Virus record (IMG/VR): IMGVR_UViG_2531839527_000012
Direction: 5' to 3' (one strand)
Length of the DNA: 25,720 nt
DNA from: a virus
Taxonomy: Duplodnaviria; Heunggongvirae; Uroviricota; Caudoviricetes
Positions within the stretch are counted from its first letter, which is position 1; each line of letters begins with the position of its first letter. Of this stretch, positions 4,203 through 15,607 are shown in pieces. The notes below the pieces were generated by a model. The model was not told the DNA's origin. It worked only from the letters and a program-made list of their open reading frames with translations, and did not search any database. A program made the position numbers and the translations under genes.

Positions 4203-4592
4203 ATGATTGACGCTCATGACTTCACAAGATGGGTGCGCACACAGGACACCCGTCTGGCTCCCGTTCTCCAAGGATTATATGATCTTTACATCCGTGGTCG
4301 TGACAACAGAGCACGCACTACAAAACCGGAGAATGTGGATACCCTTTATTTCACAGTAGACGACTGCTACCGCGTGGACTTCACACCACACGGACTGGCG
4401 TTGCACTGCCTGACACCGCACGGCGAATCACTGCTGGCGTATTACGACTCCCCGGCCTCCGTATTTGCGGCAATGCTGGCGCATCGCACTGCTGGCGGGT
4501 GTGCCTCGCTGAGTGAATACACCGCTGAATTTAACCGCCTTTCCACCATCTTCTTGCAGGAGTGGCAGCGCGTGACGGGATACCAGCCATGA
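4203..4592 (+). CDS. Hypothetical early protein immediately upstream of the replication gene
   Basis: 129-aa ORF whose stop overlaps the A start (ATGA at 4589-4592). No homolog recognised. Confidence 0.45.
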   Translation: MIDAHDFTRWVRTQDTRLAPVLQGLYDLYIRGRDNRARTTKPENVDTLYFTVDDCYRVDFTPHGLALHCLTPHGESLLAYYDSPASVFAAMLAHRTAGGCASLSEYTAEFNRLSTIFLQEWQRVTGYQP

Positions 4593-7429
4593 GTGAGTTT
4601 GCATGGAGCTGGAATGAACCACGACCAGCCATTGATCCGGCCAGATTTACGGAGCACAGGCAGGAAACTGAAACCGACCTGCAACGCGCCATCCGTTACT
4701 ACCTTGAGGCGGACAAAAGGGCACAGAAAGAACAGGAAGCGAAGGAAGAAGCCTTTTTCGCACAATCCGCCATGGGTAAAAAACTCATGGCATCCCTTGA
4801 GGAAGCCGGACAGCGTGAAAAGCTGGCACAGAGCATCATCAGTAAGCGCCGGGCAACAGAACAAGACCCGGTAGCCCGTGCCTTTGCCACACTGAAGGCG
4901 CTTCCCGTTTATCTGCGAGAACCTCTGAGCCGCCACCTCTCTTTCCTGCGCAAGAAGCAGGAAGCCGATCGTCAGAAAGGCAAAAAGAGCTGGCAGGCGG
5001 AACGCTATGCACGCGGAACCCTGCGCAAAATATTCGAACGTCTGGACCGCACCGACAGCCGCTGGCTGACACCGGGTTATCGCTCCCTTGCCGGACGCGA
5101 ACGCCTGGACGATTTGCTTTACCTGCCGCAGCTCAACAAACACCAGATACAGACGCTGGCCACCATGACGGCGGCGATGTTCAGCAGCACCTTCGAAAAA
5201 CTCTGCGATGGCTTTGGCGCGACTGATGGCGAACTGACCATGGATGTAACGCTGAAGGCGTATCAGATGCTGGCCCGCATGGCGTTACACCTGCACGCCA
5301 TGCCTCCACATTATGACGCACTGACAACAGACAAAGACCGGAGGAACGAACCGGACACGGAGCTGCTGCCGGGCGCAATCCTTCGCCTGACCTGTGCGGA
5401 ATGGTGGAAACGCAAACTGTGGCTGTTACGTTGCGAGTGGAGAGAAGAACAACTCCGCGCCGCCTGTCTGGTTTCCAGAAAAACATCACCCTATCTGAGC
5501 CAGGACGCGTTAAGCGAGTTTCGCGCACAGCGCGAGAAAACACGCGATTTCCTGAAAAGTTTCATGCTGGAAAATGAAGACGGGTTCACGATTGATCTCG
5601 AGACGGTGTATTACGCGGGTGTCAGTAACCCGGTTCACCGTAAGGCAGAAATGATGGCCACCATGAAGGGACTGGAACTTCTGGCCGAAGCCCGTGGCGA
5701 CAGAGCGGTGTTTCTGACTGTCACCTGCCCGTCAAAATACCACGCAACAACGGAGAACGGTCATCCGAACCCCAAATGGAACGGGGCCACCATGCGCGAC
5801 TCCAGCGATTACCTGGTTAACACGTTTTTTGCGGCGGTCCGCAAAAAACTGAACCGCGACGGTCTGCGCTGGTATGGCATCCGCACGGTGGAGCCTCACC
5901 ATGACGGCACGGTGCACTGGCATATGATGGTCTTTGCACATCCGGACGAGATTGAAACCATCGTGTCCCACGTCTGCGATATTGCCATTCAGGAAGACCG
6001 CCACGAGCTGGGCGATGACATAACTCCGCGTTTTAAGGCGGAGTACGTAGACGGCTCAAAAGGCACACCAACCAGCTACATCGCCACCTACATCGGAAAG
6101 AACCTGGACAGCCGCGCCGTGGATGGCATCGACCCGAAAACGGGCAAGCCACGCGTTGACCACGAAACCGGAAAATCAATGGCCGAGAGCGTGGAACGCG
6201 CCATCGGCTGGGCGCGCCTTCACCGGGTCCGCCAGTTCCAGTTCTTTGGTATCCCCTCCCGTCAGGTGTGGCGTGAACTGCGCCGCCTTGCCAGCCAGAT
6301 GGCACGCAATCCGGAAGGCCCGCAACGGCTGAAAGATGATGCAATGGATGCGGTACTCGCTGCCGCCGATGCCGGGTGTTTTGCCACCTACATTGAAAAA
6401 CAGGGTGGCGTGCTTGTTCCACGCAAGGACTACCTGATTCGCACCGCCTACGACCTCGCAGATGAGCTGAACGATTACGGCGAACAGAGCGTACAGATTT
6501 ACGGGATCTGGTCACCACTCATCGGGGAATCCTCCCGTGTGTGCACGCATCCGGATAACTGGAAGCTGGTAAGACGTAAACCAGAACCGGAAGACAACGC
6601 CCACGAAAATGGTTTTGACCTTCAGGGCGGCCCTGCCGCCCCTTGGACTCGTGGCAATAACTGTCCCCGTGTACAGGAAACGGACAACAACGGGACAGAA
6701 CAGCCGGAAGAACGGCCAGCACCGTGGCCGCAGCTCCCTGACGGCGTTGACGTGAATGAATGGATGCGCTCACTGAAACGGCACGAACGCCGGGCGCTGA
6801 TGCGTTCGCTGCGTGACAAACAGGCAAAAAACAGCAGTGATGAAATGCAGAACTGGACACAGAGCCGCAAACAGCCACGGCCTTTGCCTGATAACCACGA
6901 GTTACTCGCTAAAGAATGGCGGGAGTCTGCTGAATCTCTCGGCCTGCATATCGGTGAACAGCAGATGCAGCACCTGTTACGGGGCGGCAGTCTGTACGTT
7001 GACGGCAGCATCATTGCACCGCAGGGATTTGAAATTGTACGCAAACCGGATACCCGCCCGGACAGCCGAATCACGCAACTCTGGCAGCGCCTGAGCCGTA
7101 ATCACGGCGTAAGCAGCACGGAGATCCGCCATAACCCGGTCGCCAGCTATCTGGAACAGCTGGGGGCATCAGACCCCGAAGCCGCCGCACACCTGGCATC
7201 CACACTTCAGCAGGACCAGAACACCATGAAAACCCCCGTTACCGTGCTTTCTGACATGCTGCGCGCCATCCGTGACGCAGAGCACGCACAGAGAATCAGT
7301 GAAACCACTGAACGCGCCCACCGCAAAGCAGACCTGCTGCGGGGTAGCCTGACCAGTGGAAACAAAAAACAGACAGAAACGGGACTCACAAATCCCGTAA
7401 ATGAGCAAAAAACGTGCCGCGATATATGA
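4589..7429 (+). CDS. A: Replication initiation endonuclease, P2 gpA-like (HUH rolling-circle initiator)
   Basis: About 946 aa from ATG 4589. HUH motif VHWHMMVF near 5914-5925 and a twin-tyrosine motif SYIATYIGK near 6074-6091, both typical of P2/phiX-type initiators. Longer than the ~761-aa P2 A (from memory), with a long C-terminal region. Confidence 0.85.
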   Translation: MSEFAWSWNEPRPAIDPARFTEHRQETETDLQRAIRYYLEADKRAQKEQEAKEEAFFAQSAMGKKLMASLEEAGQREKLAQSIISKRRATEQDPVARAFATLKALPVYLREPLSRHLSFLRKKQEADRQKGKKSWQAERYARGTLRKIFERLDRTDSRWLTPGYRSLAGRERLDDLLYLPQLNKHQIQTLATMTAAMFSSTFEKLCDGFGATDGELTMDVTLKAYQMLARMALHLHAMPPHYDALTTDKDRRNEPDTELLPGAILRLTCAEWWKRKLWLLRCEWREEQLRAACLVSRKTSPYLSQDALSEFRAQREKTRDFLKSFMLENEDGFTIDLETVYYAGVSNPVHRKAEMMATMKGLELLAEARGDRAVFLTVTCPSKYHATTENGHPNPKWNGATMRDSSDYLVNTFFAAVRKKLNRDGLRWYGIRTVEPHHDGTVHWHMMVFAHPDEIETIVSHVCDIAIQEDRHELGDDITPRFKAEYVDGSKGTPTSYIATYIGKNLDSRAVDGIDPKTGKPRVDHETGKSMAESVERAIGWARLHRVRQFQFFGIPSRQVWRELRRLASQMARNPEGPQRLKDDAMDAVLAAADAGCFATYIEKQGGVLVPRKDYLIRTAYDLADELNDYGEQSVQIYGIWSPLIGESSRVCTHPDNWKLVRRKPEPEDNAHENGFDLQGGPAAPWTRGNNCPRVQETDNNGTEQPEERPAPWPQLPDGVDVNEWMRSLKRHERRALMRSLRDKQAKNSSDEMQNWTQSRKQPRPLPDNHELLAKEWRESAESLGLHIGEQQMQHLLRGGSLYVDGSIIAPQGFEIVRKPDTRPDSRITQLWQRLSRNHGVSSTEIRHNPVASYLEQLGASDPEAAAHLASTLQQDQNTMKTPVTVLSDMLRAIRDAEHAQRISETTERAHRKADLLRGSLTSGNKKQTETGLTNPVNEQKTCRDI

Positions 7430-7504
7430 AGCGCGCACAAAACAGGCAAAAGCGGGATTTCAGAATCCTGTAACCGATTAATTAATCAACATAAGGAAAG
7501 CGAC

Positions 7505-8454
7505 ATGAAAATTTGTATCGACGACGGCTCCACCAACATCAAGCTGGCATGGACTGAGAACGGCGAACGCCGCAACGCCATCAGCCCGAACAGCTTCAAG
7601 TCGGAATGGTCTGCGCCGTTCGGTGGCACGCAGCCCGCGAACTACATGCTTGATGGCGTGCGCTATGGTTTTGATCCGGTCAGCGATCGCTTTGTCCAGA
7701 CGACCGACACGCAATACCAGTACAGCGATGTGAATGTATTGCCATTCATCACGCGCTGGTCAAATCAGGCATCACACCACAGGAGGTGGATGTGGTTGTC
7801 ACCCTGCCACTGAGCGAATATTTCGACACAAACGCACAGCCGGACATGGCCAACATCAACCGCAAAAAAGCGAACGTTATGCGCCCGGTGGAGTACCAGA
7901 ACGGCGAAGCATTCACTATCCGTAACGTCGGGTTATGCCTGAATCCATTCCGGCTGGCTTTAAGGCACTGGCTGACATGAGTCCGTTTGAATCCCTGCTG
8001 ATTGTGGATTTAGGCGGAACCACGCTGGATGTGGCAAAGGTTCAGGGCAACTGGCAGGATCAGCCAGGTGTTTTGCGATCCACACGTAGGCGTTTCCTGA
8101 TGCCGATGCCGTACTGTCGGTGATGGCCACTAACGGTATGCGACCAGTCACCAATCGCCAATACCATTATCGAACATCGCCGATGAAGCCTGGCTGCGCC
8201 AGCACATCCACAATGACGCGCATTACGCCAGCCTGATGGCGGTTATTCGTGAAAAGGAAGAAACACTGAAACAACGCGTGATCCGCGCGCTGGCGGGTTT
8301 TTCGGGTTACGGACGGGTGATGGTTGTCGGTGGCGGGGCGGAGATTGTGGCACCCGCTATCCGCGAAGCCTGCGGAGTTAATGCGACTTTCATCGCGGAC
8401 GGGGTGCCACAGTTTGCTCTGGTTAATGGGCTGTACGCAATGGACAAGGAGTAA
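7505..8454 (+). pseudogene. parM: ParM/StbA-like actin-type partition ATPase, disrupted by multiple frameshifts
   Basis: Four track ORFs (7505-7813, 7786-7980, 7935-8123, 8236-8454) plus untracked frame segments are colinear with plasmid R1 ParM from memory: IDDGSTNIKL (phosphate 1), [12 protein letters not shown] (phosphate 2), VMVVGGGAE (adenosine motif), and a C-terminal LVNGLY. At least four frame changes; the two junctions reconstructed (near 7740 and 7930) are single-nucleotide deletions. Confidence 0.75.
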
Positions 8455-8458
8455 ACCA

Positions 8459-8770
8459 ATGACGACACCAACCAGACGGATAAGTTTCTATCTGAAGCCC
8501 GCCGCCGTCAAGAACGAAGGCGAAGCATGCGCCTGGCTGGACAGCCTTACACCAGAAGCCCGCAAAAGTGGTCAACGCGTGGCTTTTCTGGCCGGGCTGG
8601 CACTACTGAAAATGAATCCGGCAGAGGCTTACCGACTGGCTGCATGGGCTGATGATGAGGCGTTATCAGTGACACAAACCAGGACAGAACGCCCCGCATC
8701 ACAGCCAGTATCAACCGCACAGATAACCAGTCAGATGGCCGGAAATATCCGGGCGTTATTTCCTGAATAA
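8459..8770 (+). CDS. parR: ParR-like partition adaptor / ribbon-helix-helix DNA-binding protein
   Basis: ATG 8459 lies 4 nt after the parM stop. MTTPTRRISFYLKP...AWLDSLTPEARKSGQRVAFLAGLAL resembles the R1 ParR N-terminus (IAFKLNPD...LDSIP...RAALTAGLAL) from memory. Confidence 0.6.
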   Translation: MTTPTRRISFYLKPAAVKNEGEACAWLDSLTPEARKSGQRVAFLAGLALLKMNPAEAYRLAAWADDEALSVTQTRTERPASQPVSTAQITSQMAGNIRALFPE

Positions 8771-8833
8771 CACAACATCAGGGCGAGTTCGCCCTGCTCT
8801 CCACCTCAGAACATAAACAAGGAGAACGACTTA

Positions 8834-9424
8834 ATGAGCGAAATCAACTATCAGGCATTACGTGAACGTTATTCACCTGTGCCAGTACCGAAATGCCCTA
8901 TTTGCGGCGAGGAAATGTCAATTCAGCGAATATCTGGAGCACAGGTTGTTTATGCCTGCTCCGGTTATGGTGATGATGGAGATTTCAAAATTGGCCGAAC
9001 TCTTGCCGACGAACATTATGAAAAATCACGCGTAACAGTGTTGGATGTCGAGGATCCTGAAGTATTGGCGCTACTTGATTGGCTGGAAACCAAAGACAAC
9101 CGAATCGCTGAACTGGAAAAAATCGCCACTGACTATGCACTTAAATTCCAGAAAGCACAGGACGCATTAAAGTATGCCGCTTTGCTGCATAGCAGGACGG
9201 CGCAACAAACAAATAATTTTGCAGTATCGCTTCCGGACATAAGCGAATATTTCATTAATGACGTATTTCAGCCCTTGCGATACGAGCGGGATGTTGAAAG
9301 AGCCATCATAAAGGCTGGCGGAAAAGCATTGTGGCAGGAGAAACACGAGGACAGAACGCATCAGTCCTGCGATGTAAATCGTGGATGGTTTAGCCCACTG
9401 ACGACAGATAAAAATAACACCTGA
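8834..9424 (+). CDS. Hypothetical zinc-ribbon / coiled-coil protein in the P2 tin-old hotspot slot
   Basis: 196-aa ORF with AAGGAG ribosome-binding site 9 nt upstream; N-terminal CPICG...(~20 aa)...CSGYG, central helical region. No homolog recognised. Confidence 0.6.
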   Translation: MSEINYQALRERYSPVPVPKCPICGEEMSIQRISGAQVVYACSGYGDDGDFKIGRTLADEHYEKSRVTVLDVEDPEVLALLDWLETKDNRIAELEKIATDYALKFQKAQDALKYAALLHSRTAQQTNNFAVSLPDISEYFINDVFQPLRYERDVERAIIKAGGKALWQEKHEDRTHQSCDVNRGWFSPLTTDKNNT

Positions 9425-9438
9425 TCCCCCTCAAACCA

Positions 9439-9460
9439 GGGCGATAATCGCGCATCGCCC
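9439..9460 (+). terminator. Hairpin just downstream of the 196-aa gene (terminator-like)
   Basis: GGGCGAT-aatcgcgc-ATCGCCC (7-bp stem, 8-nt loop) followed by TTCT; begins 15 nt after the stop at 9424. T-tract is weak. Confidence 0.4.
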
Positions 9461-9864
9461 TTCTGCACAATAGTGCACAAATTTGCACAATTTTTTTGAA
9501 CGACTTTTTACCCTTCCGGCCCGCATGGCGGCTGGATCCGTCAAGGATCCGTGCGTGCACAAAAAAACGCGTTTTTTCTGCGCGCAGGTGACGGGGGAAC
9601 AGCCCGCGTTTCAGGGGGTAAATAGCATCCCCTGAACGATGTCGCAGCAACACAACAGAATGGCTGTATTTCTCACGCTGAGTGTGAAAAAGACGTGAGG
9701 GATTCGATTTGATGGGGTGAAAGGTAAGGCCGTCAAAATCGCACTGAGGCGTCGAAGAACATGCAGTCAACGCAGTGGGATTGCGTAAGAGTCTGACCGT
9801 CGATGATGGCAATAAGCAGGAAAGCGTCGTGAAATTATCTGACTGATACAGGAGCTGGAGAGTC

Positions 9865-9887
9865 GGGGCATAAATTTTTTATGCCCC
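9865..9887. terminator. Hairpin between convergent genes (possible terminator for portal Q)
   Basis: GGGGCATAAA-ttt-TTTATGCCCC, a 10-bp perfect stem, about 30 bp beyond the Q stop (9915) on the minus strand. Confidence 0.4.
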
Positions 9888-9914
9888 GGCGAAGCAGCAG
9901 ACAAGCGAAGCGCG

Positions 9915-10961
9915 TCAGGATGTGGGCTGGGTGTCTAACAGTGCGTAAGGGTTAAAGCGGATCACCTCTTCGCCAAGCCAGTCATTGATGTGCTTCATGG
10001 CCTCCATGACGGGCATCAGCTCGTTAATTGCGTAAACCCGCGCGGCCTTCTCCACATCACCAAACGCACTTTTTTCACCCGGCATCGCCCCCATCAGTTG
10101 CGGCGGAACGCGGTGCGCAGCCAGCACATCATCACGGGATGCCGCCTTAACATTCATGAACTCATCCTTTGCGGTGATCTGCTGGAACGGCAAAATTTGC
10201 ACCCCCTCTTTGCCCCCGTTGGGCGCATGAATGAGCACGTTTTTAAACGCACCACCACCACGTGCCCCCTGTAGCGTTTCTTTCAGGGAGTCCATGCTTT
10301 CGCGGTTTACCTGCGCTGCACCGATGTAGATGATGCACCCGGCGTGGGATCCATTGTCGTAATACAGTTTTCTGAACATGTCCGCCGAATGAGACAGGCT
10401 TGCCGAGAGTAATGCGCCAAGATATTCCGGCATGCCGTAAATTTCCTGGTTAATGTCCGGATTCATCAGGTGGCACACTTTGCCAGGGCGAAACTGGAAC
10501 GCGTCCTTGCCATCCTGCACATACCACCATGATTCAAGATCGCTTCCGCGTCGCATGTATTTCGCCAGTGCGTGCCGTAATTTAAGCGGTTCGCCGAGCA
10601 TATTGCTTCGAAGCTCAAGGAATGCGTTACCGAACACAAACCAGTCCAGCGCCAGCGCCGAGAAATCCTGCCGGGAAAGCAGCGGGTGCGGGATGTAGCA
10701 ACCGAGTAATACATTGCGCTTAAAGTAAAGCGCAGACTGATGCCAGGACGTTTGCCGGGCTGCTCTTGCCAGACCGTACCAGTCCACCGGGGTTTCATAC
10801 CACCGCCCGTTATCAGCACAGTACATATTGTCCAGCAGGTCATGCCCGGTCAGGCGATAAGGACCATCAAATGTGAATGCACTGAGCGATGATTCTTTCC
10901 TGAGCGCATCAGCGAGATCAATGCGTGAACTCATGCGCACTTTTTTATTTTTTCTGCTCAT
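9915..10961 (-). CDS. Q: Portal protein, P2 gpQ-like
   Basis: 348 aa, close to P2 Q length; position and orientation as in P2 (downstream of P, leftward). Start overlaps the P stop by 1 nt (ATGA on the minus strand). Confidence 0.85.
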   Translation of the reverse strand: MSRKNKKVRMSSRIDLADALRKESSLSAFTFDGPYRLTGHDLLDNMYCADNGRWYETPVDWYGLARAARQTSWHQSALYFKRNVLLGCYIPHPLLSRQDFSALALDWFVFGNAFLELRSNMLGEPLKLRHALAKYMRRGSDLESWWYVQDGKDAFQFRPGKVCHLMNPDINQEIYGMPEYLGALLSASLSHSADMFRKLYYDNGSHAGCIIYIGAAQVNRESMDSLKETLQGARGGGAFKNVLIHAPNGGKEGVQILPFQQITAKDEFMNVKAASRDDVLAAHRVPPQLMGAMPGEKSAFGDVEKAARVYAINELMPVMEAMKHINDWLGEEVIRFNPYALLDTQPTS

Positions 10962-12712
10962 CAGAACTCCATAACCGTGAAACGCTCGTTTTCTCCTTCG
11001 CCGCCAATCGGTTCGTTAATGACAGCAAGCATGGTTGCCCACGCAAGGTCGCCGTGGCTGATCCCCCTCGCGCGGTCCGTTTCGTAAGTGATAAAGCCGC
11101 CCGGTGTTTTCACCTTACGCACGGCGTTAAAGGCCGCGACCAGCTCGCGTTCGGCGCGATCGTATTCCCACCGTCCGGCACGCATTATTTGCAGCATTTT
11201 CAGTACCAGCGACCGTTTGGATGACAGCGTGAAGGTGTACGGAATAGCAGCAGGGAAAAACCGTTTCACTATCTGATAAACAGCCTCCCCGTTCCCGCCC
11301 GTCACATCAATGCCGATGTGTTCCACGTTGTAGCGATACGTGAACTCTTCAATGACTCTGGCCTGTTCTTCAAACTCCAGCCCCTGAACGCGTCGCGTCT
11401 CCACCGTTCGAAAACGGCCACCAGGAACAGCCGGAGGAACCACCACGGACACAGCGCCGCTGTCGCCGTTGCCACTGCTGCCGTTTGCGTCATACCCAAT
11501 CCATACCGGACGATTCCCCATCGGGCGGGGAGCAAAAGGTTTCCAGTCTTTCCAGTCGTCGTATCCGTCAACACCGCAGCCAATCAGGATATTCAGGTTA
11601 AATGCCGATTCCCCTTCGCGGACAAACTCACACATATAGAGATTGAGGAACTCGTCTTCGGTGTTTTCATCACGAATTTCGTCAATATCGGTGTGTTTCC
11701 AGCCGTGATTAACCACATCTTCCAGCGTGACAATTTGCCGCCACGTCCGGTCAGGGCAGATAAGCCCGTTATGCAGCGTTTTCCAGTCCACAGAAAAACG
11801 CTGGCGTTTATGCGTGGCCTTTTTCTCGTTCCAGCGGTCGCCGTTCCAGTAGGCGTATGCCTCGTGCGTTTCGGTGGATGGCGTGGAGAAGTAGGTGCGC
11901 CGCAGTCCGCTGAGGGTTGCCATAGCGCCAGCCACCTTGCGCAGTTCAGCAAAGCGACTGACCCAGAAGAATTCATCAAAATAAAAATTGCCCGTATAGG
12001 ACTGTGCCGACGCAGCAGAAGTGCCGAGAAAATGCAGCTCTGCGCCGTTGGAGAGGATGATTTTATCGCCCCCTTTCAGCTCCACATCAACTTCAGATGC
12101 AGCCTTCTGAATAATGCTTTTAAACTGGAACGCCTGACGACGCGACGCAGACAAAAAAATCTGGTTACGCTGGTAAGGTTGCGCCACATCGTCACGCAGC
12201 GCCATCAGCAGTGCTTCCTGTGCAAAATACCAGGTCGCCCCAATCTGTCGGGATTTCAGGATCATCCTGTTACGTATCCCGGCTTCCCTGCAAAGGGTCA
12301 GGGAGTCAAACCAGCCCCGCTGATGCCACTCCAGCCTGCTGATGATTTTTTCCCGCAGTGCGGCAATCTGTTCCGGCGTGAAATGATTTTTGAGTTTTTT
12401 CGCCCGGCCTTTCTTTCCTGTGGCCGTCACATCCGGCTGGCCATCATGCAGTTTTTTAAGCTGCCGGGTCAGCAGGTCTATTTCCTTAAAGTCACCGCCT
12501 GTTTTATTCTGTTTTTCAGTAAGCTGGATGAGGCGCGCATCAATGGACTGCGTGACACGCTGCACGGGTGGCGTTTCATCCCACTGGTCGCGTTTTTTCC
12601 ACGCATAAATCGTGTTCGGGTTTATTCCCATCAGACGTGATATTTCTGCGGGCGGATAACCCTGCCAGTAAAGTTGCCGCGCACGCTGGCGCACAAAAGC
12701 GTCCTGAATCAT
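10961..12712 (-). CDS. P: Terminase large (ATPase) subunit, P2 gpP-like
   Basis: 583 aa; helix-turn-helix-like N-terminus (AEISRLMGINPNTIYAWKKR) as in P2-family terminase P; divergent from the O/N/M block, as in P2. Confidence 0.9.
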   Translation of the reverse strand: MIQDAFVRQRARQLYWQGYPPAEISRLMGINPNTIYAWKKRDQWDETPPVQRVTQSIDARLIQLTEKQNKTGGDFKEIDLLTRQLKKLHDGQPDVTATGKKGRAKKLKNHFTPEQIAALREKIISRLEWHQRGWFDSLTLCREAGIRNRMILKSRQIGATWYFAQEALLMALRDDVAQPYQRNQIFLSASRRQAFQFKSIIQKAASEVDVELKGGDKIILSNGAELHFLGTSAASAQSYTGNFYFDEFFWVSRFAELRKVAGAMATLSGLRRTYFSTPSTETHEAYAYWNGDRWNEKKATHKRQRFSVDWKTLHNGLICPDRTWRQIVTLEDVVNHGWKHTDIDEIRDENTEDEFLNLYMCEFVREGESAFNLNILIGCGVDGYDDWKDWKPFAPRPMGNRPVWIGYDANGSSGNGDSGAVSVVVPPAVPGGRFRTVETRRVQGLEFEEQARVIEEFTYRYNVEHIGIDVTGGNGEAVYQIVKRFFPAAIPYTFTLSSKRSLVLKMLQIMRAGRWEYDRAERELVAAFNAVRKVKTPGGFITYETDRARGISHGDLAWATMLAVINEPIGGEGENERFTVMEF

Positions 12713-13726: not shown

Positions 13727-14773
13727 ATGAATCTGGTGATGTCAGATATTACCCGCAACAAGCTGGGTTGCTATATGGCGCAGCAGGCGTCGCTTAACAA
13801 TATCCCGGTTTCCGCACTGGTATCGCGATTTACCGTGGAACCCTCGGTACAGCAGCGTTTTGAAAACGCCTCAAAGGAAAGCACCGAATTTACAAAAAGA
13901 ATTAACGTGATCGGCGTGACCGACCAGAAAGGCGAAAAAATCCTCCTGGATACCACAGGACCGATTGCGCGCACGAATACCAGTTATGACGGAACAAAAC
14001 GCCGTAACCCGAATAACGTGGTTGATCTGAAAAACCGCAAATACCAGTGCGAACAGGTGAACTACGACACGTTTATTTCATATCCGCAGCTTGATGCCTG
14101 GGCGGCACACCCTGATTTTCAGTCCCGCATCAGCGCACAGATTGCCCGACAGGTGGCCTTGACCGATCATGATCGGTTTCAACGGCACGTCTCACGCGGA
14201 TGAGTCAACTTCAGCACCAACAAGTTGCTTCAGGACGTTAACGTGGGTGGCTGGAGCACATCAGAACCGACGCCAGCGAACGCGTTATGAATACGTGACG
14301 CTGACCTCCCGTAACATGGACAACACCGTGGCGCACGCGGGTAAGTATGCGAACGCTGATGCACTGGTACAGGACGCGCGCTCATCCCTGCTGGATGAAT
14401 GGCACAAGGAAGCGACGACCTCGTGGTGATTATGGGGCGCAACCTGTTTAACTCGCTGCGTCTGCCCGTGCTGAACAGCATCAGCGGCCAGAATCCCAAT
14501 GCGGAATTACTCGCCGGGCAGCTCATTCTGTCATCGCGCACCATTGGCGGGCTGGGCGTGTTCCTTGCGCCGTTCTTCCCGGATTCAACGATGCTGGTCA
14601 CCTCGTTCAACAACCTGTCGATTTACTGGCAGAAAGGTTCAATGCGTCGTCTGATGAAAGACGAACCGGAATACAACCGCATCGCCACCTACCAGTCCAT
14701 CAATGACGCTTATGTCGTTGAAGACTATGGCAAGTGCGCGATGGTCACTGGCCTGAAGTTCGCCGACAGCTAA
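13727..14773 (+). pseudogene. N: Major capsid protein, P2 gpN-like, frameshifted
   Basis: First 159 codons (13727-14203) are colinear with P2 N (FTVEPSV, RINV, KGEKI, NKYQCEQVNYD). The protein then continues across several frame switches between 14169 and 14430 (MIGFNGT / STNKLLQDVNVGGW / ERVMNT), and the last 125 codons (14399-14773) match the P2 N C-terminus (NLSIYW, YVVEDY). Confidence 0.85.
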
Positions 14774-14818: not shown

Positions 14819-15607
14819 ATGATTACTCCTGCACAACAACACTGGCAGAACGTGATGGCACAGCGCGCAGGCCGGGCGAATGAAGGCGTGGACCACGCCG
14901 CGCGTACCGCGCATGAAGAGGTGCTGTATCGTCTGCGTCTGGCACAGGCCCGGCTTAAGGGCGTACAGGCCAGAAGCGCGAAAGCCGCCATCAAAAAAGA
15001 GTTGTTGCCGGATTTTTCCGGCTGGATTGAGGGAACGCTGGAGGCTGACGGCGGGCAGCAGGATGAAGTGATTGCCACGCTGATGGTGTGGGCGATTGAC
15101 TGGGCGATCTTCCGCTTGCGTGCGTATGGGCGTATGTGGTCCGTCAAACCTCATCATGCCGGATAACTTTGGCCGTACTGCTGCCACGGTACTGACCGAA
15201 GAAATCTGAACCGGTACTGACGCAGGCCGGGACGGATGCGACGCGGATTTGTCCGCCTTTATCGAACCACTGGACACCCTCCGGGAGATTGTCACGACCA
15301 GGACATGCCGGACGAAGTGCGCGCCAAATTATGCAAGCGTGCGCTTTGCCCGTCGTGGTCTGACCGATGCAGGCAACATGGCCTTATCACTGAAGCTGCT
15401 GCGCGAAGCGATGCACCTGAACCCGAACGCAGGTGTGAAACGCGAGATTGCAACCCTTTCCCGCGCCCTGAAAAAAGCCGATTCCGCAGCCGACCAGAAG
15501 ACGCCAGCGCACAGCAGGCGCAGGACGAAAGCAGCAAAAGTAAAAAGACAACGCGGAAGCCTGCAACACGAAAAACCACCGCGACGCAGAAGGCGAAGCG
15601 CGGTTAA
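14819..15607 (+). pseudogene. M: Terminase small (endonuclease) subunit, P2 gpM-like, frameshifted
   Basis: N-terminal 115 aa (14819-15166) match P2 M (KKELLPDFSGWIEG, QDEVIATLMVW); later segments lie in two other frames (MPDEVRAKL in 15236-15607; AGVKREIATLSRALK in 15249-15614). Confidence 0.8.

Follow-up and report, generated by a model that had tools for sequence, protein, structure and literature searches.

Two described systems bear on the gene analyzed here. The first is Ea22 of lambda and the Stx phages: the protein forms tetramers, and phages deleted for ea22 are induced faster and give higher yields (PMC7093339, PMC10834534). These pro-lysogenic effects are the only phenotypes published for the family (PMC7093339, PMC10834534). 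The second is the cos-proximal region between gpA and gpQ of E. coli P2-like prophages, a hotspot in which 1,650 arrangements were found in 18,150 loci (Rousset et al. 2022, PMC9122126). Roughly one in four P2-like phages has a partition system in this interval (PMC9122126), which also holds non-defence cargo such as partition genes and toxins (PMC9122126), and approximately 21% of the hotspot cargo families match DefenseFinder (bioRxiv 10.1101/2024.10.15.618418). In the present work, a gene encoding a protein of 196 amino acids (aa) was analyzed in the virus record IMGVR_UViG_2531839527_000012, a stretch of 25,720 nucleotides (nt) that is referred to below as the window. The gene lies between a parR-type partition gene and the portal gene.

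We are highly confident of the identity and the anatomy of the gene, a clear Ead/Ea22-family accessory gene, i.e., non-essential cargo. At least 21 alternative cargos, this gene among them, occupy the slot between parR and cos/portal. Our overall reading, which we regard as probable on balance, is that of an Ead/Ea22 accessory that is co-expressed early and acts as an adaptor. Neither the gene family nor the hotspot nor the exact arrangement of the gene in the slot is new to public annotation and the published tables; the arrangement and the protein accession are listed in Table S5A (PMC9122126). The sole item described here that may be new is a module of 40 aa in the C-terminal part of the protein.

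Gene family and hotspot

The gene and its translation signal were located as follows:

8819–8824, + strand: ribosome-binding site AAGGAG, 9 nt before the ATG, read from the sequence
8834–9424, + strand: Ead/Ea22-like family gene, 196 aa, ATG start, TGA stop

The encoded protein is identical in sequence to RefSeq WP_001416413, named 'ead/Ea22-like family protein', and locus L001 is the same over the gene and carries the same annotation. The Pfam profile PF13935 (Ead/Ea22-like) matched with 111.1 bits against a gathering cutoff of 27 (E = 8.4e-32), aligning residues 2–140 with positions 1–134 of the 139 in the model, and PHROG 368 (phrog_368) matched at 1e-29. A large protein collection yielded 533 homologs at E <= 1e-3, the named ones being nearly all ead/Ea22-like; the closest 90% cluster among them has 486 members. 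The original prediction, made from the letters of the window, had rightly reported an open reading frame (ORF) of 196 aa with a good ribosome-binding site, and had called its product an orphan without a recognizable homolog. The latter description is wrong, given the Pfam match, the RefSeq name, the 533 homologs and the published locus table.

At the N-terminus, the signature MSEINYQALRE is identical in 10 of 11 positions to MSEINSQALRE of lambda Ea22. The strong PF13935 match is shared with the Ea22 proteins of lambda and the Stx phages (933W, Phi24B, P27), and the signature MSEINxQALRE is common to lambda Ea22. A three-part build of N-domain, coiled coil and variable C-terminal part has been described for Ea22 (PMC7093339, PMC10834534) and is also predicted for the present protein, whose zinc-ribbon-like module corresponds to the extra β-stranded N-domain of Stx-phage Ea22. 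In profile, N-terminal signature and predicted architecture alike, the protein conforms to the Ead/Ea22 family, and Ea22 is likewise a non-essential accessory gene in a mosaic region of temperate phages. The location differs: the studied Ea22 members are encoded in the lambdoid exo–xis region under pL, whereas the window gene is found between parR and cos of a P2-family phage. Relatives of its protein modules do occur in lambdoid early-left regions.

By megablast, the window was assigned to a Xuanwuvirus prophage (P88-like; Peduoviridae, P2 family) of E. coli. Phage P88_4B11 is 98% identical over a span comprising parM, parR and the ORF, and the chromosome of E. coli strain E1739 is 100% identical across 8775–9465. 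In the RefSeq record of E1739, the neighbors are annotated as 'plasmid segregation protein ParM', 'plasmid partitioning/stability family protein' and 'phage portal protein'. The genomic context of the gene in the window is the following:

4562–7429, same strand as the ORF, upstream of it: replication gene A (replication endonuclease)
7505–8454, same strand as the ORF: ParM-type gene (Pfam StbA_N and ParM C-terminal), in several frames in the window
8459–8770, + strand: parR-type partition gene, 103 aa (Pfam Plasmid_stab_B, 1.6e-24; phrog_2515 'partition protein', 1e-58)
9464–9490, + strand: three TGCACAA repeats with 10-base-pair (bp) spacing, the first conserved backbone right of the slot
9915–10961, − strand: portal gene (gpQ homolog), an ORF annotated 'phage portal protein' in L001 and the right-hand landmark of the hotspot
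10961–12712, opposite strand to the ORF, downstream: large terminase gene

The gene is thus placed between the replication endonuclease gene and the portal gene, beside cos, as is the cargo of the gpA–gpQ (old/tin) hotspot (PMC9122126), with which it shares the cos-proximal position, the replication–portal gene interval and the high turnover. Unlike there, the variable slot proper is here downstream of parMR instead of directly following A, and parR is the final conserved backbone gene on its left.

The window was compared with six differently loaded Xuanwuviruses. Homology ends at 8770, the parR stop codon, or at 8822, and restarts at 9463/9464, or at 9418 in phage Chuche. The cargos of these relatives include:

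P88: a ClpX-type zinc-finger gene and a gene without known identity
Chuche: a DUF3800 gene on the opposite strand
PhiR44_2: four genes, one of them weakly Mom-like (E = 1e-4, below the Pfam gathering cutoff)
Shae_phiSM: a gene for a DUF4760 membrane protein

The cargo of 520873 likewise differs from that of the window. A survey covered the best 80 IMG/VR loci by ParR match, a sample biased to close relatives, 72 of which had both flank anchors. Among these 72 loci, 21 cargo clusters were distinguished, the largest being the 693-nt cargo of the window (15 loci plus the window itself). The Ea22 profile matches 28 of the 72 loci, in four arrangements, so that Ea22-like genes are the commonest occupants of the slot. 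Other Ea22-like alleles encode proteins of 174 aa (P0020), 205 aa (P0007) and 169 aa (several forms), and a truncated version, an allele of 127 aa, occurs in the L021 cluster. In some of these loci, extra genes are present up- or downstream of the Ea22-like gene. On the scale of the species, the cargo is at least 80% covered in 134 of 5426 complete E. coli genomes, and some part of the parR–portal interval is found in 1479. These counts of cargo variety and genome presence show that the gene is variably present and recurrent, not universal. The variability of the gene in related prophages, suggested earlier as a check, is therefore borne out, as is the placement of the ORF in a known variable P2-like locus between A and portal, for which the published hotspot (PMC9122126), the 21 cargo clusters and the other cargos of named relatives speak.

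Several further observations concern the flanks of the slot. A fourth TGCACAA copy is located at 9556–9562, 66 bp beyond the other three, and in each relative examined, the repeats form the first conserved sequence beyond the right end of the cargo. The linear P88_4B11 record ends and restarts at window positions 9508/9511, approximately 20 nt past the third repeat. The repeats are candidate terminase/cos-recognition or centromere-like protein-binding repeats. Two loci (L011 and L012) carry an extra ORF of 174 aa at 7091–7615, without a Pfam match, at a place equivalent to the stretch between window position ~9650 and the portal gene end at 9915, so that, across the putative cos from the slot, the region has a second point of insertion. 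Positions 9864–9888, immediately 3′ of the portal gene, contain an inverted repeat with perfect 11-nt arms, CGGGGCATAAA-TTT-TTTATGCCCCG, which probably terminates the leftward operon of the portal and terminase genes.

Relative to the near-identical E1739 prophage, the window contains clusters of single-base deletions: 10 in parM (7505–8454), 6 in the region of the major capsid gene and 11 beyond it, the latter two areas being 14158–14414 and 15103–15345. The genes in these areas are split into several frames. Such deletions are lacking between the clusters, and no difference from the E1739 record falls inside the Ea22-like ORF, which is unaffected. The clusters look like local assembly or sequencing error, or like a decaying prophage.

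Protein architecture and the C-terminal module

An AlphaFold2 model built from 48 homologs was of moderate quality, with a mean predicted local distance difference test score (pLDDT) of 64.8. Together with the alignments, it divides the protein into four parts:

8834–9055, + strand: N-terminal module, residues 1–74, with the signature MSEINYQALRE and a three-cysteine zinc-ribbon-like domain (C21, C24, C42)
9056–9202, + strand: predicted coiled coil, residues 75–123, a single AlphaFold2 helix with pLDDT of about 74–84
9215–9334, + strand: conserved C-terminal module of ~40 aa, residues 128–167, NFAVSLPDISEYFINDVFQPLRYERDVERAIIKAGGKALW
9335–9421, + strand: poorly predicted, probably disordered tail following the C-terminal module

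In the model, strands occupy residues 29–41, a single helix spans 75–123, a small α/β unit is seen at ~129–165, and the tail (168–196) is of very low confidence. The CxxC...C motif and the helical domain that had been noticed from the sequence are both recognizable here, as C21-x2-C24...C42 and as the long helix. The cysteines of the whole protein are at positions 21, 24, 42 and 179; the N-domain has just three, as against the four metal ligands in two knuckles (CxxC...CxxC or an equivalent) of a zinc ribbon, and Asp47 is aligned with the fourth cysteine of the paralog P0032. Zinc-ribbon Pfam matches to residues 20–49 were weak and all under their cutoffs, and NCBIfam returned only sub-threshold zinc-finger noise. 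Zinc binding by the N-domain is plausible as a prediction. In the helix, hydrophobic residues account for 79% of the a/d heptad positions as opposed to 51% of the whole helix, in agreement with a predicted coiled coil of seven heptads, and the invariant LL...L..E core of the family is located there. The protein is acidic, with an isoelectric point (pI) of 5.1.

A PDB sequence search with the protein found no match at E <= 1, and a Foldseek search with the full-length model (pLDDT 64.8) against PDB and BFVD found none below E = 0.05, only small zinc-ribbon look-alikes, the top hint being a Topo I zinc ribbon (prob 0.54, E = 1.0). No catalytic, nuclease, NTPase, transmembrane or other effector-like domain was detected in the protein with Pfam, NCBIfam and Foldseek. 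A match of the family profile to PCNA in PDB (2e-6) was rejected as artefactual: the chain is a triple-repeat fusion, and its stretches each have an i-Evalue of 11.

The alignment of the family is strongly mosaic, with N-terminal, middle and C-terminal segments swapped. The zinc-ribbon-type N-module (residues ~12–74) has approximately 75% identity with many Ea22 proteins of lambdoid prophages, and in other alleles the same C-terminal half follows wholly different N-modules. The Xuanwuvirus alleles of the slot (P0020, P0007 and the 169-aa forms) illustrate this exchange: they share with the window gene the slot, the C-terminal module and the 3′ hairpin, whereas their N-modules are swapped and the 174-aa form is devoid of the zinc ribbon.

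The C-terminal module was examined separately by searching residues 116–196 against 1.84 billion representative proteins. Its core, residues 128–167, was found at the extreme C-terminus of 22 representative clusters of proteins of 68–322 aa with unrelated N-terminal parts, among them Ead_Ea22 in eight clusters, DUF551 in five and dATP/dGTP pyrophosphohydrolase in two. Across versions that are 60% identical, 16 positions are invariant, including V131, P134, Y139-F140-I141, F145-Q146-P147, R149-Y150-E151, D153 and E155, and the consensus reads F-x-V-x-L-P ... YFIxxVFQPLRYERDxERA..AGG. Modeled alone, the module is predicted confidently (AlphaFold2 pLDDT 86.7); for residues 128–167, no Pfam model and no PDB fold relative were found. 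Either it is a functional domain that can be moved between proteins, or recombination has spread it as a gene end.

A related observation was made in the P88 cargo, where gp20 (112 aa; L002, 3275–3613) ends in WKDAVDWVLKEACQV, a segment that is also C-terminal in some lambdoid Ea22 proteins (P0047, P0116). Pieces of Ea22 therefore also occur as separate genes in the slot. The idea that P88 gp19/gp20 are a split version of the Ea22-like gene was dismissed: BLASTP revealed no similarity, and gp19 is the ClpX-type zinc-finger protein.

Hairpins flanking the gene

Two palindromes stand on either side of the gene:

8779–8796, + strand: left hairpin CAGGGCG-AGTT-CGCCCTG, 7-bp stem and 4-nt loop
9437–9461, + strand: right hairpin AGGGCGAT-AATCGCGC-ATCGCCCT, 8-bp stem and 8-nt loop

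They were already listed in the original prediction as related inverted repeats, and their positions are confirmed. The left repeat consists of CAGGGCGA/TCGCCCTG at 8779–8786 and 8789–8796, and the right repeat of AGGGCGAT/ATCGCCCT at 9438–9445 and 9454–9461; in both, the arms are 8 nt long and 100% complementary. The 63-nt spacer with the left hairpin folds at −18.1 kcal/mol, and both folds are more stable than shuffled sequence (z = −3.8 for the left, z = −3.0 for the right). AGGGCGA occurs six times in the window of 25.7 kilobases, four of them in the two palindromes; the total of six is not unusual, being reached by 11 of 100 shuffles. An Rfam search of 7300–10100 found no RNA family.

The distribution of the hairpins among the surveyed loci separates one from the other. 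In 58 of 73 loci, the left hairpin stands behind parR independently of the cargo, with the loops AGTT, CATC, TATT, TATC or AACT. A compensatory change of its stem, CAGGGCA...TGCCCTG, is seen in two loci (L036 among them), and a change compatible with a G·U pair on the + strand in the loci of the 174-aa allele (L009). Since it is present with many cargos, in loop variants and with compensatory stem changes, the left hairpin is a selected, conserved element of the parR 3′ end and not of the cargo. The right hairpin is limited to genes that end in the C-terminal module; it stands behind them in 25 of 73 loci, in three cargo arrangements and including some loci whose left end is without the left hairpin. 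Its stem is constant, with a loop that varies (AATCGCGC, AATCGCAC, AATCACAC), and it is best read as the own 3′ hairpin of this Ea22-like gene type. An att-like pair of borders is ruled out by the independent distribution of the left and right palindromes.

The palindromes had been proposed to be terminators or cassette boundaries. On the + strand, no U-run follows either of them (the tails are CTCTCCAC and TCTGCACA), and the left one qualifies as terminator-like on the − strand only; neither is therefore a canonical intrinsic terminator. As boundaries they fail on their distribution, the left one accompanying any cargo and the right one this gene type. Both are best read as transcript-end or stabilizing hairpins, of which the left is part of the backbone and the right part of the gene, and not as recombination borders. 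Other cargos have canonical terminators, a hairpin and a T-run, at the equivalent right end. The P88-type terminator there, AACGCCCT-CTTCC-AGGGCGTT, shares an AGGGCG/CGCCCT core with both window palindromes; the core is absent from several other right-end hairpins, and the sharing is probably chance among GC-rich stems.

Expression and possible roles

The gene shares its strand with A, parM and parR and starts 63 nt past parR, and a crude sigma-70 consensus scan of 7300–10100 found no promoter-like site, a weak negative only. Strand, spacer and scan together suggest that it is probably co-transcribed with the early and partition genes, and such co-transcription would imply expression soon after infection or induction, in the manner of lambda ea22, which is transcribed from pL. 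In the best-supported model, the protein would act as an oligomeric adaptor whose coiled coil presents the zinc-ribbon and C-terminal modules. These terminal modules might bind a host or phage partner and thereby tune the lysis/lysogeny balance, host physiology or survival. By analogy with the studied Ea22 proteins, we tentatively propose that this oligomeric adaptor may be pro-lysogenic.

Several points weigh against this interpretation. Similarity to lambda Ea22 is confined to the first 11 residues, a thin likeness to the functionally tested proteins. The C-terminal part of the window protein is unrelated to the solved C-terminal domain of lambda Ea22, the structure of which is unmatched by sequence or fold. 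The terminal K/R-G-E reported in the studied Ea22 proteins is not present; the protein ends in ...TTDKNNT, and the nearest counterpart is internal (...KAGGKALWQE, aligned with ...AGLKIKGD or ...AGIRIKGE of relatives). Zinc binding and oligomerization of the protein are predictions. The phage is of the P2 type and the location is not the lambdoid exo–xis region, so regulation and partners may differ. A private promoter may exist, the scan being a crude consensus test. Finally, about one fifth of the hotspot cargo families match defence models, which makes the location alone compatible with defence.

In P2, the equivalent slot is occupied by old and tin. We consider it unlikely that the window gene resembles them in being expressed from the prophage as a single-gene factor of anti-phage defence or superinfection exclusion. 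The highly variable slot is a published P2-like defence hotspot with the DefenseFinder share given above, and its alternative cargos include the DUF4760 and DUF3800 proteins. Old and Tin, however, are demonstrated exclusion proteins, whereas the window gene matched no PADLOC model (PADLOC-DB v2, 0 families at E <= 1) and its product has none of the nuclease, NTPase, transmembrane or other effector-like domains sought. Nor was a promoter of its own detected, the published phenotype of the family is pro-lysogenic and not one of defence, and partition genes and toxins are carried in the same hotspot. A role in anti-defence also appears doubtful. Here, the Ea22 scaffold would present the zinc-ribbon and/or C-terminal module in order to inhibit an immune protein of the host or of a rival prophage early in infection. 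Early expression with the replication genes, as judged from position, would suit such a role, as would a small, acidic and non-enzymatic protein, like many inhibitors, and the weakly Mom-like cargo of PhiR44_2 is another occupant of the slot. According to a 2026 preprint, some phages encode the anti-OLD protein Oad2 (EaE-like) in fusion with EaD/Ea22 proteins, and these accessory regions are proposed there to serve as anti-immunity reservoirs. The link rests on one sentence of that preprint, however; no likeness of the window protein to Oad2/EaE or a known inhibitor was demonstrated, and the published Ea22 deletion phenotypes concern lysogeny, not escape from immunity.

The extreme mosaicism of the family, with its swapped segments and truncated versions such as the 127-aa allele of the L021 cluster, might suggest a functionless by-product, i.e., a hitch-hiking chimera of Ea22 fragments. 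This seems very improbable, as the identical or near-identical 196-aa ORF is intact in the 134 complete E. coli genomes and in the 486-member cluster, the C-terminal module keeps its 16 invariant residues, and the good ribosome-binding site is retained. The position of the gene, right after parR and approximately 85 nt from the ends of the linear record of a related phage, could also fit an accessory of the adjacent machinery, either a third ParM/ParR partner or a cos/packaging helper. We disfavor this explanation as extremely unlikely: in close relatives whose parMR and cos/portal flanks are nearly the same, the slot is filled by unrelated genes, some of which are in the reverse orientation, and the same protein modules are found in lambdoid prophages and in a plasmid prophage without these neighbors.

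The Ea22 family is abundant in prophages of pathogenic E. coli; the 134 of 5426 complete genomes given above represent the window allele alone. In P88-like prophages, Ea22-like genes are the most frequent occupants of the parR–cos slot. It is conceivable, if improbable, that the C-terminal module serves as a transferable domain for targeting or docking, by which different phage effectors are brought to a single host hub or immune protein, and that the protein on its Ea22 scaffold would then be a multivalent anti-defence or exclusion factor in the P2-type hotspot. If a docking domain for a host or immune target proves true, the module would provide a handle on many uncharacterized accessory genes of lambdoid and P2-type phages.

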